A DNA stretch of 62,477 bases, counting the filler, from Actinobacteria bacterium UBA7524 (GTDB lineage: Bacteria; Actinomycetota; Coriobacteriia; Anaerosomatales; UBA912), in assembly GCA_002478275.1 (NCBI GenBank). It is 7 parts of 7 records of this genome, joined end to end, with 100 filler letters (N's around TTAATTAATTAA, not from the genome) between each part and the next. Parts side by side here need not be neighbours in the genome. Positions count along the whole stretch, not along the records: positions 27,245 to 43,762 come from DLMY01000002.1; 6 more parts are not named here. One strand, 5' to 3'. Below are positions 30,001 to 33,000 of the stretch, one piece after another (position 1 is the first letter of the stretch; each line of letters begins with the position of its first letter). The position numbers are program-made.

Positions 30001-33000
30001 CCGATCGTCGTCGCGAGCCCGGTGACCGGCAAGATCTTGTGGGTCAACTCCCATTTGGTGAAGATGGCCAGGGCAGGACNNNNNNNNNNNNNNNNNNNNN
30101 NNNNNNNNNNNNNNNNNNNNNNNNNNNNNNNNNNNNNNNNNNNNNNNNNNNNNNNNNNNNNNNNNNNNGATGGCCAGGGCAGGACACCCCGAGCAGATCC
30201 TCGGCAAGAGCATCCTGGATTTCGTGAAAGCACCAGGGCAGCAGGGAATCGCACTGGGCGACCTCGCCAAGGTCGCGCTCGGCGGCAGCCCCCGGCCTGT
30301 CATCTACGAGTTGCAGCGACTGGACGGCGAAACCGCTGCGGGGCACGTGGCCTCGGTTCCGATGATGTTCAGAGGTCAGCCTGCCATGCTGAGCCTCGTC
30401 ACCGATGTCTCCGACCGCGAGCGCGTCATCCGAGAACTCGAGGAGAGCGAGGAGCGCTACCGCCTGCTGCTCGACAACACCCCCAGTGGGATCGTCGTGG
30501 TCCAGGACGAGAGGGTCGTCTTCGCCAATCGTTCTCTCGCTCGCGCGCTCGGTTACGACGGCACTGATGATCTCCTCGGCATGTCGGTCTACGAACATAT
30601 CGCCGAGGAGTATCGAAAGCCGGTTCGCGACGCTCGCCGCCAGCTCATGAGGACCGGCAAGACGATTCCGGCAGCTGCTGTCGAACTCGTGCGGCGTGAT
30701 GGTGAGCGAGTGCCTACGACCGCCGTCACCACCCTCATCCGCTGGAAGGGAGAGCTAGCGACTCAGACGTTGATGCATGATCTCGCGCTATGACGCCCGC
30801 CCCTCGAATGTGAGAAGCGGGCGTCTGTGCTTGCGTTGTCATGCGGTCGGCTACTTGATGAAGCCGCCGTCCGCCACATACTGCTTGCCCGTCGTGTACG
30901 AGGACTCGTCGGAGGCGAGGAACAGCGCCAGGTACGCGATCTCCCTTGCTTCTCCGTAGCGTCCAAGCGGAACCTGTGTCTCGAAACCGGTCTGAACGGA
31001 GCATGGGTCCTCCGGTGCGAACTGCCCTTCGATCGAGCGCATCATCCGGGTGTGGATCGGTCCGGGATGGACGGAGTTCACGCGAACCCCTGCTTCCGCT
31101 GCTTCAAGTGCCGCCGTCCGAGTCAGGCCGATGACCGCGTGCTTCGTGGCCACGTACGGGCCAAGTCCGGCAGAACCCATCAGGCCTGCCACCGATGATG
31201 TGTTGATCACCGATCCGGAACCCTTCTCCATCATGACCGGCAGCACGTGCTTGAGTCCTAGCCACACGCCGCGTACGTTGATGGCCATGATCTTGTCGAA
31301 GTCCGCCTGTTCGACGGCGACCAGCGGGGCGCACTTGCCCTCGATCCCCGCGTTGTTGAAGAAGACGTCGATGGTTCCGAACGCTTTGAGTGTCTCATCG
31401 ACGTACATCTTCGTCTGGGCCTCGTCGGAGACATCGGCTTTGATGGCCGTGATGTCGCCGAGGTCCTTGAGCTCCTCGACGGCCTCGCTGAGGCTCTCGT
31501 CGCTGATGTCCACGATCGCGACCTTCGCGCCTTCTTCGAGGAACAACCGTGCGGTCTCTTTGCCGATGCCGGCCGCGCCGCCCGTTATGAGTGCCACCTT
31601 ACCCTTGAGTCTGTCCACAATAGAACCTCCTTCGTCGGATCCGAGCGAACGGTAAGGGATATATACCCAGGGGGGTATACGTTCAGACACTCGCTGGGCG
31701 ACTCGGACATCCAGGAGGACGTCGCGGTTCTCTTGGGTCCCGTCATGCGTCGCCGGTGTCGGCCGTAGCTTCCATCTCGTCGACGAGTGCCAGGACTTCG
31801 GTCACCTCGGGGATGTCTTGCATGCTATGGCCGTAATGGACGAATCGGGCGATGCCTTCCTTGTCGACCAGGACCTGAGCAGGCATCCGTCCCAACTTGA
31901 AGAGCTTCACCTGTTGCCCGTAGAGCTTGAGAACGTGATGGGCGGGGTCTGGCAGTCCGACGAAGGGAAGCGAGTGGGCCTGCCAGTATTCGCTGAATGC
32001 ACCTGCATCTTCCGGGCCGACGACCAGGACCTCTACGTTGCGGGCCACGAATTCCGAGTAGGTGTCGCGCAACTGCGCCATGTGCCGGCGGCAGAACGGT
32101 CAAACGAACCCACGGTTGAAGACCACGAGCACGTGCGAGCGGCCTCGGTAGTCGGACAGACTGACGGGCGTACCGGCGAAGTCTTCCAAGGTGAAGTCCG
32201 GCGCGGCGGTATCCAGGGCGACTCGGGGCATGCACTTGTCCTTCCGCGGCAGAGCCGGCCGGCGAGCTTGGAGCTGTGTGTAGGTCACGTTGGTCCATCA
32301 GGGGTATTCTATCTCTACGGGGTCGCATCCGGGCGGCCAGGGGCAGGGAGGGCTCTCATGAATTCAGGCCGTGCAATCCGGACTCTATCAGTGGCTCTGC
32401 TTATAGCGGTGTTCATCATGTCCGCTGCGCAGGTCTCGGCGACACCCACCTTCTCGGAGATCGTGGTGGCTGGTGGACCGGTGATGATAGGGTCTGCGCC
32501 GATCCAGGTGAATCCGGAGTTCGACGGACGCTACATCGTGTATGAGCGCACGCCGGGAGTGGACTCGGGCCTGCTCGATACGGACATAAGGGCCTACGAT
32601 GTCGGAACCGGGCAGACCATCTCGATCAGCGATCGTGAAGGCGATGACGATGCCGATCAGATCAGTCCCGACGTTTCGATCGATACGGTCGTCTATCAGA
32701 GCTATGAGTTGCTGCACCCCAACATATTCCTCCACAACATCACGTGGTCGAATACACGTCAGGTCACCAATGTGGCTCACGCTCAGACCGGCCCGCGGAT
32801 CTCCGGCAACCACATCCTTTGGCATGACGGTCAAACCGACGCGCTCAAGTTCTACCCCGTCACCTGGCCTCAGTACATGAACCAGCAGATTCCCGGCACG
32901 GTCGGCGTGTACCAGGGCTCCTGGGACATCGATGGGGACACGGTGGTATTCGCGCGGAAGCATGGTGCAGGGGATTTCACGTTCTACGAATGGAAGCTGT

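Follow-up and report, generated by a model that had tools for sequence, protein, structure and literature searches.

Two adjacent gene calls in an uncultured actinobacterial genome most probably represent a single selenoprotein gene, cut in two at an in-frame UGA. Within the window (the whole stretch of 62,477 nucleotides of Actinobacteria bacterium UBA7524 DNA that was analysed), the gene would encode a cytoplasmic protein of 162 residues with an AhpC/TSA fold in which UGA codon 44 is decoded as selenocysteine (Sec), a reading to which we assign a probability of roughly 0.92. Its parts are listed in Table 1, together with the other putative selenoprotein genes of the genome discussed below.

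Table 1. Positions of the Prx-like gene and its parts along the window, and of further putative selenoprotein genes on their own contigs.
Feature	Position	Strand	Remarks
Whole gene of the Prx-like putative selenoprotein	31743..32231	(-)	162 codons plus TGA stop at 31745-31743
Start codon and ribosome-binding site	32229..32245	(-)	ATG 32231-32229; GGAAGGA 32245-32239, identified by eye; spacing 7 nt
UGA codon 44, probable Sec	32100..32102	(-)	Opens the U-P-F-C redox motif
TGC codon 47, putative resolving Cys of UxxC	32091..32093	(-)	Aligns with the BCP-type peroxidatic Cys (PDB 2cx3 profile alignment)
Putative SECIS hairpin	32065..32080	(-)	Loop AGUU at 32074-32071; 80-sequence alignment A2
112-aa gene-caller fragment	31743..32081	(-)	From M51, without the active site; table 11 ORF list
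Prx-glutaredoxin fusion	C26:10018-10851	(-)	TPV-U-T
DsbA-like protein	C10:63594-64286	(-)	YA-U-PFC
Thioredoxin-fold lipoprotein	C30:55620-56063	(+)	U-PAC
Rhodanese-thioredoxin fusion	C19:93942-94649	(+)	U-PAC
DUF1573-cytochrome c fusion	C5:1078-1983	(+)	SN-U-GC
DUF1462/YuzD/ArsD-like thioredoxin-fold protein	G000:C9:40929-41267	(-)	Putative Sec in a flexible C-x4-U loop

One reading frame across a conserved UGA

The first-pass annotation had already proposed that the pair is one gene carrying a U-P-F-C motif, and the proposal stands, on a single frame, a single internal TGA and the conservation of that TGA in relatives. The frame is interrupted once, at codon 44 (context GFV-U-PFC), and holds no other stop; the read-through protein matches the AhpC-TSA Pfam model across residues 8–129 at 83.7 bits (cut-off 26), with U44 inside the match, and orthologues share both its start and its length. 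Translation table 11 splits the same sequence into a 62-aa ORF ending at the TGA and a 112-aa ORF beginning at M51. One protein database entry (P0003, 112 aa) is 100% identical to the C-terminal piece, and dozens of fragments of about 111 aa from other assemblies are deposited as peroxiredoxin or redoxin.

A search of 60 genomes of the same order recovered seven orthologues from five families, all with TGA at the same codon; they are 70–74% identical to the window protein, with 70–75% identity on either side of the TGA, and mean column identity across the UGA site is 81% (alignment A1). Beyond the order, a scan over 185,579 species genomes left 80 related loci, every one of which carries TGA at this codon, and which come from three phyla (Actinomycetota, Chloroflexota and that of Smithella); two of the sources, Longilinea arvoryzae and Leptolinea sp., are isolates. 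In a 42-sequence alignment (A6), all 37 rows derived from DNA have TGA at codon 44, and Cys47 is invariant, its codon being TGC in 79 of 79 genes in register. One could still take the TGA for a genuine stop or an error of assembly, leaving two small ORFs or a pseudogene, as the split made by standard gene callers would have it; but the same TGA recurs in 87 other independent assemblies, protein conservation runs straight through it, and the downstream fragment by itself has neither the active site nor the fold's first two strands, such that we give this explanation next to no credence.

When 17 full-length database homologues were aligned, the site held Cys in two, W in 14 and a garbled residue in one. 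We read the 14 W residues as TGA codons probably called under a code in which TGA is Trp. Those calls are also what might be cited for TGA being a genome-wide sense codon for Trp or Gly, on the model of codes 4 and 25, with a residue other than Sec at codon 44. Against this, TGA is the commonest ordinary stop of the genome and closes 264 of 477 long coding-like ORFs; CCA is the anticodon of the single tRNA-Trp that was found; genome G+C is 63%; in-frame TGAs within domains are limited to about a dozen genes, where they fall at Cys-type redox positions; and a Trp residue there would destroy the redox function of a U/CxxC motif. Reassignment of TGA is, accordingly, scarcely credible here. The classical criterion of Sec/Cys pairs applies weakly to this clade because close Cys homologues are rare; more remote Cys-type relatives do occur, L035 (WCPTC, 28% identical) among them. 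On present alignments, the Prx-like clade of the window gene may be an essentially Sec-only family, with a near-invariant putative SECIS, distributed across three phyla.

Selenocysteine machinery in the genome and its order

The order to which the host belongs uses Sec almost throughout. Among its 61 genomes, 51 have a selA match above the cut-off and 53 a tRNA-Sec match above the gathering score, whilst selD exceeds its cut-off in 27 of 31 genomes and has an internal TGA in all 27. A natural control is provided by one relative that is 99% complete (G011), in which selA, selD and tRNA-Sec all fall under threshold and TGA forms of every query are absent. A literature search on OPB41/Anaerosomatales and selenium or selenocysteine yielded nothing informative.

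The assembly itself is 82.9% complete, with only 27 tRNA genes found, so that a gene missed in it need not be missing from the organism. The first-pass annotation held that Sec machinery genes were missing from it; selA, selB and tRNA-Sec were indeed not found, but part of selD is there. The end of contig C37 carries the 5' part of selD, which starts 200 nt before the contig end and runs for 70 codons, with an in-frame TGA of its own in the UxxK motif (KAG-U-AAK) of the N-terminal Gly-rich loop; it matches positions 1–68 of TIGR00476 with that one TGA, and its score is under the cut-off only because the contig end truncates the gene. In the same assembly, searches for selA (TIGR00474) gave zero matches, those to the selB model (TIGR00475) were all ordinary translation GTPases under the cut-off, and tRNA-Sec was found by neither Aragorn nor Rfam RF01852, the best RF01852 match being an ordinary tRNA-Ser (43.4 bits against a gathering score of 47).

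These gaps, with selD reduced to a 70-codon fragment, would be expected of a host that no longer inserts Sec, in which the UGA terminates translation or allows low-level near-cognate read-through and the genes are relics. Several observations speak against such decay. Firstly, selD is cut by a contig end rather than by mutation. Secondly, in several relatives where one contig carries both, selD lies 0.5–2.5 kb upstream of selA (four loci inspected before the family search showed none inside 1.5 kb); since the relatives' selD sits just upstream of selA-selB-tRNA-Sec, an assembly gap explains the absence of all three. Thirdly, the sister genomes of the same family (G002, G003 and G004) carry the machinery, and intact frames, motifs and hairpins are kept in all of the at least 12 Sec genes. 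Loss of Sec insertion is thus very improbable, and UGA 44 would be decoded as Sec by the bacterial SelA/SelB/tRNA-Sec/SelD route.

A candidate SECIS downstream of codon 44

The alignment of 80 sequences (A2) contains a hairpin, GGCGC-AGUU-GCGCC, 22–37 nt past the U of the UGA, with its loop at +28 to +31. The window copy reads U.GCGC-AGUU-GCGC.A and has one G-G mismatch, leaving a weaker stem of 4 bp and one U-A pair. Across the alignment 89.1% of hairpin cells are paired, as against 21–52% when the partner strand is slid. Compensatory changes occur at three of the eight pairs but in only 4 of 640 cells, few cells covarying because the sequence is nearly invariant; in a shuffle control, 14 of 500 replicates reached both the observed covariation score and the observed percentage paired. 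The core stem is also present in the RNAalifold consensus. Codon choice is constrained over the same stretch: the share of the commonest codon is 0.88–1.00 at codons 52–55, compared with a mean of 0.57 elsewhere, and Leu54 is encoded by TTG in 79 of 79 genes, as against top-codon shares of 0.35–0.72 for other conserved Leu codons.

The hairpin fits a candidate bacterial SECIS, and the bSECISearch model reportedly allows distances of 16–37 nt 3' of the UGA. In SECIS elements of the Escherichia coli fdhF type, the hairpin stands directly 3' of the UGA and SelB binds G/U of the apical loop. The window hairpin resembles these in lying inside the coding region with GU in its loop, at 28–31 nt, and differs in its short stem (4–7 bp) and in the spacer of 18–19 nt between UGA and stem; binding of SelB is a prediction, in which this short hairpin with its GU-containing tetraloop would recruit the factor. 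An alternative stem for the window gene (CUGC.CGCC/GGCG.GCAG) was rejected, being broken by two variable bases in most orthologues. Folds of the 45–60 nt past each UGA in single sequences were discarded in favour of alignments, as hairpins appear everywhere in such folds because G+C is 63%.

Fold, active site and family of the window protein

The protein was modelled with AF2 at a pLDDT of 89.5, with U44 directly before a helix formed by residues 45–56. Its best structural matches are Bcp1 (3drn, TM 0.80/0.85), AhpE and ResA, and profile alignment ranks 2cx3 (E 7e-13) and 3drn (E 9.5e-13) ahead of the ResA-type 3c71 (E 1.8e-9). Aligned to the peroxiredoxin motif, U44 stands at the Thr/Ser place of TxxC and C47 at that of the peroxidatic Cys, yet the PxxxT/SxxC motif itself is replaced by R40-G-F-V-U44-P-F-C47, in which R40 takes the place of the peroxiredoxin Pro and does not vary among the 42 sequences of A6. 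The sequence U44-P-F-C47 is instead a UxxC motif located where helix 1 begins. Pro117 is likewise invariant, six residues ahead of the conserved strand residue Asp123; it occupies what we take to be the cis-Pro site of CxxC oxidoreductases, a place held by Arg in peroxiredoxins.

The name peroxiredoxin, given to the gene in the first-pass annotation, therefore needs to be divided: the AhpC/TSA fold holds, whilst assignment to the classical peroxiredoxins does not, the motif being of the UxxC oxidoreductase type. Like BCP/PrxQ-type peroxiredoxins (3drn Bcp1, 2cx3) and AhpE, the protein has the same fold and places Cys47 where the peroxidatic Cys would be; unlike the BCP/PrxQ type, it has Sec for Thr/Ser and Arg for Pro, so that the active site would be a CxxC-type dyad. 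ResA/TlpA proteins have a similar fold (TM 0.68–0.84), with a CxxC-type motif where helix 1 starts, but they are extracytoplasmic, whereas a signal peptide or membrane anchor is not evident by eye in the window protein, which also has Sec for the first Cys. The best NCBIfam match, NF040769 (SelL-related redox protein), scores 82.3 bits over residues 9–105 and covers the redox motif; the curated cut-off is higher, at 120 bits, and only profile positions 2–99 of 173 align, marking the window protein as a relative rather than a member.

Reviews of selenoproteins (PMC13188914, PMC9312934) list a Prx-like thiol:disulfide oxidoreductase, 'Prx-like 1' (PF00578, UxxC/UxxU), a bacterial selenoprotein family defined computationally in the metagenome surveys of Zhang and Gladyshev. 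The window protein resembles it in its PF00578 domain, Sec-first UxxC, single Sec and small single-domain build, a likeness judged by Pfam domain and motif rather than against the reference sequence WP_010940744.1. The two differ in that the GOS table for Prx-like 1 gives about 12 Cys forms per Sec form (2,740 vs 225), whereas the 80 best relatives of the window protein all have Sec. Since U44 replaces Thr/Ser and C47 stands in the peroxidatic-Cys place, we describe the protein as a 'Prx-like thiol:disulfide oxidoreductase, UxxC'.

Under this description Sec44 would occupy the nucleophilic-Cys place of CxxC oxidoreductases, just before the first helix, and would form with Cys47 a U-x-x-C pair, most likely cycling between selenol/thiol and selenenylsulfide, the protein acting as a thiol:disulfide (or hydroperoxide-reducing) oxidoreductase. 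A Sec-decoded but true hydroperoxide-reducing peroxiredoxin, in which Sec44/Cys47 attacks the peroxide and thioredoxin recycles the enzyme, would account for the top sequence and fold matches being of the BCP/PrxQ type (2cx3, 3drn), for the alignment of Cys47 with the peroxidatic Cys and for the name carried by the database fragments. It fits less well with the loss of two of the three positions of PxxxT/SxxC (Arg40 for Pro, Sec44 for Thr/Ser), with Pro rather than Arg at the presumed cis-Pro place, or with a CxxC oxidoreductase, ResA, being nearly as good a structural match, and we regard it as doubtful, if much the strongest of the competing explanations.

Further probable selenoprotein genes and their number

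Five other gene pairs had been flagged in the first-pass annotation as split selenoprotein genes, and each has one internal TGA. The TGA of the Prx-glutaredoxin fusion is found in six of six orthologues. In the DsbA-like gene, Sec and Cys forms share the codon (TGA in seven loci, TGC/TGT in four), and here Cys homologues are clearly present at the Sec position. Relatives of the thioredoxin-fold lipoprotein and of the rhodanese-thioredoxin fusion keep the TGA: about 15 matches extend into the N-terminal part of the former, all with TGA, and the latter has a match of at least 160 bits in 48 of 60 relatives, one TGA apiece. For the DUF1573-cytochrome c fusion only one homologue had been reported; it is in fact found in two of 60 relatives, both with the TGA. 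The domain matches recorded earlier were reproduced (DUF1573 at 65.8 bits over residues 100–184 plus Cytochrome_CBB3; Rhodanese 39–124 plus Thioredoxin 145–232; Thioredoxin_2 53–143), and hairpins were located downstream of the UGA in each of the six genes. The evidence thus supports each of the six as a single selenoprotein gene, cut by the caller at its UGA, with Sec in place of the redox Cys. Published selenoprotein tables already contain each of the six families, so that their recovery amounts to a repair of annotation.

The earlier total of eleven for this genome was too low, having missed SelD and the DUF1462/YuzD/ArsD-like protein (C-x4-U). Even in its incomplete state the genome has at least 12 Sec genes, or 13 with the previously claimed heptahaem cytochrome; a search of the genome with NF040886 for the latter gave zero TGA-containing matches. 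Genome-wide screens differed in their reach. A strict codon-usage filter recovered none of the known Sec cases; a best-of-six-frames filter gave 108 candidates, among them four of the six genes, both FdhA genes, the hydrogenase and SaoL; and a filter for Cys within four residues gave 23, including five of the six. SelD was caught by neither of the last two. Twenty candidates, chosen by eye, were run against NCBIfam, and six of these also against Pfam, yielding four known selenoproteins, one new YuzD-like gene and 15 others. In ten of the 15 the family match ends short of the TGA, and these are therefore adjacent genes or true stops: the pairs 2-phosphoglycerate kinase/transaldolase, CBS/alanine racemase and NrdG/dUTPase, and the CoaD, sigma factor, DMT transporter, NlpC/P60, MqsA-like, peptidoglycan hydrolase and DUF4349 candidates. 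The remaining five had zero family matches, save for a weak one in a single candidate (L171), well upstream of its TGA.

A YuzD/ArsD-like family

The YuzD/ArsD-like gene occurs in this genome and in 56 of 60 relatives in the order. NCBIfam has no model for a Sec family of this kind, and it is unnamed in the main text of two selenoproteome reviews. Database records of the family are nearly all fragments of 70–85 residues that lack the active site; dozens of 72-aa entries named 'DUF1462' come from other assemblies. An ArsD-like CC..CC loop is present in the Cys forms, and two Fe-S protein genes, for a ferredoxin and a DUF362 protein, flank the gene; on these grounds the protein could be a Sec-based redox carrier linked to metal(loid)s or Fe-S. 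This carrier role and, as a separate suggestion, the Sec-only nature of the Prx-like clade are both tentative, and somewhat less likely than not. Among the families found, only the YuzD-like one may be unreported as a selenoprotein.

Implications

The conceptual novelty of these results is small, six of the families being known and the YuzD/ArsD-like protein a possible exception, which, if unreported, adds an order-wide conserved selenoprotein family. Their practical weight lies in annotation: an uncultured actinobacterial lineage has about a dozen genes for redox proteins, hydrogenase and formate dehydrogenase that are split or truncated in public records, as fragments without the catalytic residue, and the same error is widespread in other assemblies, as the dozens of 'peroxiredoxin' (111-aa) and 'DUF1462' (72-aa) fragments attest. 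Metabolic reconstructions that are blind to Sec misjudge the hydrogen, formate and thiol-redox capacity of these anaerobes, together with their dependence on selenium.

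An in-frame TGA within a single conserved gene

Under the standard code, the peroxiredoxin-like gene on contig C47 is split into two ORFs, one of 62 aa that stops at the TGA and one of 112 aa from Met51, and the latter is what the gene caller delivered (database protein P0003, 100% identical). Reading through the TGA as selenocysteine (Sec, U) yields one protein in which Pfam AhpC-TSA scores 83.7 bits over residues 8–129, with the TGA inside the domain; a putative ribosome-binding site (GGAAGGA) was seen by eye 7 nt upstream of the ATG. The 60 other genomes of the order hold seven close orthologues (70–74% identical, from five families), all with a single TGA at the same codon, set in an invariant F-N-R-x-x-x-U-P-F-C-R-R-H-M-A-Q-L-R. 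A scan of 185,579 species, each represented by a single genome, recovered 293 relatives, and the best 80, which were inspected, all carry TGA at the codon-44 site. Some of the 80 belong to MAGs with a Coriobacteriia, Thermoleophilia or Actinomycetota label; many Anaerolineae are represented, among them two isolates, Longilinea arvoryzae KOME-1 and Leptolinea sp. HRD-7, as is Smithella. Frame, spanning domain and conserved TGA thus bear out the first-pass annotation, which had joined the two pieces into one gene, and we put the probability that this is a genuine UGA-Sec gene at about 0.92.

Coordinates of the features discussed (C47 rows count along the window; G000 is the genome under study: 1.81 Mb, 60 contigs, 63% G+C, estimated completeness 82.9%)
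Feature	Position	Strand	Remarks
Contig C47	window 27245-43762		
Peroxiredoxin-like gene	32231 to 31743	minus	162 codons + stop, single internal TGA
Internal TGA, codon 44	32102-32100	minus	context G-F-V-U-P-F-C
selD 5' end (L024)	G000:C37:55896-56107	plus	contig end; in-frame TGA, motif ..K-A-G-U-A-A-K..
DUF1462/YuzD/ArsD-kind protein (L166, L186)	G000:C9:40929-41267	minus	113 aa, outside window, in-frame TGA

Among 17 full-length database homologues, hand-picked from the listing, the Sec column holds Trp in 14, Cys in two and a garbled residue in one; we read the Trp as TGA in short contigs that were translated with a TGA=Trp code. Dozens of further entries of ~111 aa begin at the equivalent of Met51 and are labelled peroxiredoxin or redoxin. 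Since TGA occurs at 80 of 80 loci and Cys forms are few (2/17), the clade is almost entirely of the Sec form, and the Cys homologue at the same column that is classically looked for is only thinly represented. Genome-wide reassignment of TGA to sense is ruled out: TGA terminates 264 of 477 long coding-like ORFs, the tRNA-Trp detected has anticodon CCA, and in-domain in-frame TGAs are limited to about a dozen genes.

A candidate SECIS

The 36 bases starting at the TGA are nearly invariant across an 80-sequence alignment spanning three phyla, and contain a conserved hairpin, (A)UGGCGC-AGUU-GCGCC(AU), whose loop lies 28–31 nt past the U of UGA. Standard pairs fill 89.1% of alignment cells, against 21–52% once the 3' partner is displaced by 1–3 columns; nine sequences have a G-U wobble, and RNAalifold returns the 4-bp core. 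Compensatory changes (G-C to A-U) occur at three of the eight pairs, one of them entailing an Arg-to-Cys change, though covariation is thin, at four cells, and 14 of 500 shuffles attain both the covariation score and the percentage paired that were observed. The copy in this genome has a G-G mismatch at one outer pair. The top codon accounts for 0.97 of Ala52, 1.00 of Gln53, 1.00 of Leu54 and 0.88 of Arg55, compared with a mean of 0.57 at 60 conserved codons elsewhere, and all 79 genes use TTG for Leu54, where other conserved leucines use CTG or CTC at shares of 0.35–0.72. Such freezing of synonymous sites is a stronger argument for a SECIS than the covariation.

Nature of the encoded protein

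The predicted structure (pLDDT 89.5) places U44 immediately before helix 45–56, and its best structural matches are Bcp1 (3drn, TM 0.80/0.85), AhpE and ResA. In a profile alignment, Cys47 stands opposite the peroxidatic Cys of the BCP structure 2cx3, and U44 beside the Ser of S-P-V-C; that the protein is a peroxidase is a live, if less likely, alternative. Whereas classical peroxiredoxins carry PxxxT/SxxC, this signature is replaced here by R-x-x-x-U-x-x-C, and the active site is a CxxC-type dyad with Sec in the nucleophile's place. Pro117 is invariant, six residues ahead of Asp123 in the strand M-P-A-Q-V-L-V-D, at what we take to be the cis-Pro site of CxxC oxidoreductases, a position presumably held by Arg in peroxiredoxins. 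From the dyad reading we file the protein, which had been called a peroxiredoxin, not as a true member of that family but under the 'Prx-like thiol:disulfide oxidoreductase (PF00578, UxxC)' selenoproteins tabulated in earlier work (PMC13188914, PMC9312934, PMC2398784). As such an oxidoreductase, its Sec44 selenolate would attack a substrate disulfide or hydroperoxide, Cys47 would resolve the intermediate to give a selenenylsulfide, and a thioredoxin-type reductant would regenerate the protein. Membership of the SelL-related family NF040769 was ruled out (the protein scores 82 bits, where the cut-off is 120).

The neighbours, judged by eye, gave no clue to function: a short-chain dehydrogenase gene lies downstream on the same strand, and a divergent long ORF (~32358-34337, plus) shows a signal-peptide-like start and repeats of the form ..N-R-Y-(A/E)-T-(A/S).., which look like cell-wall-binding repeats.

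Further selenoprotein genes of the genome

The other five genes named with this one translate as claimed, and their Pfam domains were reproduced. The rhodanese-thioredoxin fusion (C19) matches at 160 bits or more in 48 of 60 relatives, with exactly one TGA in each; a U-A to C-G covariation in its hairpin, GCCUGU-GGUCG-ACAGGC, is tied to the third base of a Pro codon and the first base of an Arg/Gly codon. A hairpin of the same type follows the TGA of the thioredoxin-like lipoprotein (C30), for which about 15 matches, every one with TGA, extend into the N-terminal portion; one 25%-identical match lacks the TGA. The DsbA-like protein (C10) has matches in 39 of 60 relatives, ~17 with TGA and ~21 without; codon-level reading of 12 loci gave TGA in seven, TGC or TGT in four and a contig-edge start with Cys in one. 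All seven Sec forms preserve its hairpin, GUCGACC-AGUUCM-GGUUCGAC, which is degraded in three of the four Cys forms. The peroxiredoxin-glutaredoxin fusion (C26, T-P-V-U) is a true Sec-peroxiredoxin, because U occupies the peroxidatic position; TGA is present in all six orthologues (61–72% identity), about 20 remoter peroxiredoxin matches in the order likewise have one TGA, and the consensus has a stem-loop from +16 to +48. The DUF1573-cytochrome c fusion (C5, S-N-U-G-C) occurs in two of 60 relatives, with TGA in both; in NCBIfam it comes closest to NF041425, OS_HP2 (seleno)protein, with 48 bits, below cut-off, and hairpin evidence from three sequences is weak.

Our own genome screens re-found both FdhA genes (..Q-A-R-I-U-H-S..), the NiFeSe hydrogenase large subunit (D-P-U-I-G-C) and SaoL (NF040728, 156 bits against a cut-off of 140), all previously put forward as Sec genes. 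The total of eleven offered by the first-pass annotation is too low, having missed the SelD fragment and the YuzD/ArsD-like gene; verified Sec genes number 12, and the total would be 13 with the putative heptahaem cytochrome.

The YuzD/ArsD-like protein has the motif C-x-S-G-G-U-G-P-S-W (a C-x4-U loop). All 56 matches among the 60 relatives share the position of the TGA, and a near-invariant hairpin, GGUCUCC-GGA-GGAGAUC, follows 13–29 nt past the UGA. A thioredoxin-like fold is predicted (pLDDT 84.8), with low confidence in the C-x4-U loop; structurally it matches 1xg8 of the DUF1462/YuzD family best (TM 0.66/0.68), and ArsD structures match too. Full-length Cys forms in the database have an ArsD-like CC..CC loop, most copies there are 69-85-aa fragments labelled DUF1462 or YuzD, and no NCBIfam model matches. 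By eye, it is flanked by genes for a small ferredoxin and a DUF362-like Fe-S protein. Elsewhere on C9 (42820 onward, plus) and on at least several other contigs, this small genome encodes very large multihaem cytochromes with 12–21 CxxCH motifs per frame, which suggests extracellular or periplasmic electron transfer.

Selenocysteine machinery

The Sec machinery had been reported absent, which holds for tRNA-Sec, selA and selB, not found in this 82.9%-complete assembly, but not for selD: contig C37 ends in 200 nt of this gene, which code for the SelD N-terminus with its catalytic-loop motif and are cut off by the contig end. Across the order, selA exceeds its curated cut-off in 51 and tRNA-Sec its gathering score in 53 of 61 genomes, and selD its cut-off in 27 of 31, with an internal TGA in all 27. 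In same-contig cases selD lies 0.5–2.5 kb upstream of selA and tRNA-Sec about 2–10 kb beyond it, the gene between the latter two being a putative selB. As C37 breaks inside selD, the upstream neighbour of selA in relatives, the rest of the machinery probably falls in the assembly gap after the fragment.

A natural control is provided by relative G011 (99% complete), in which selA, selD and tRNA-Sec are all below threshold: none of seven searched proteins has a TGA form there, and the distant Prx-like homologue in G011 reads W-C-P-T-C. This genome seems to represent a branch of the order without Sec use. In another relative, G020 (C7:85516-88395), selA is in pieces with two TGAs and the selD match contains five TGAs and one TAG, yet TGA-containing selenoprotein genes persist, a pattern that could be explained by a decaying Sec system or by an assembly rich in frameshifts.

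Novelty and implications for annotation

It is well known that gene callers truncate selenoprotein genes. Many 'full-length' database versions of these proteins (P0002-P0071, P0122, P0129) carry Trp at the Sec position, likely the outcome of metagenome callers picking the TGA=Trp code on short contigs, and such miscalls constitute a second systematic mis-annotation besides truncation.

Published prokaryotic selenoprotein tables list Prx (TxxU), Prx-like (UxxC), Trx and thiol:disulfide interchange protein (UxxC), DsbA-like form 1 (UxxC) and DUF1573/OS_HP2 (UGC), together with SelD, FdhA, hydrogenase and SaoL; every family of the first-pass annotation is already in them, and the three fusions are architectural variants. 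The original interpretation is supported with three corrections, concerning the Prx-like assignment, the partly present machinery and the low count. The finding is real and useful for annotation repair, and belongs to known kinds. The names ArsD, DUF1462 and YuzD are absent from the main text of two selenoproteome reviews, a single paper in the literature searched mentions DUF1462, and the YuzD/ArsD-like Sec family may be the sole element that is new.
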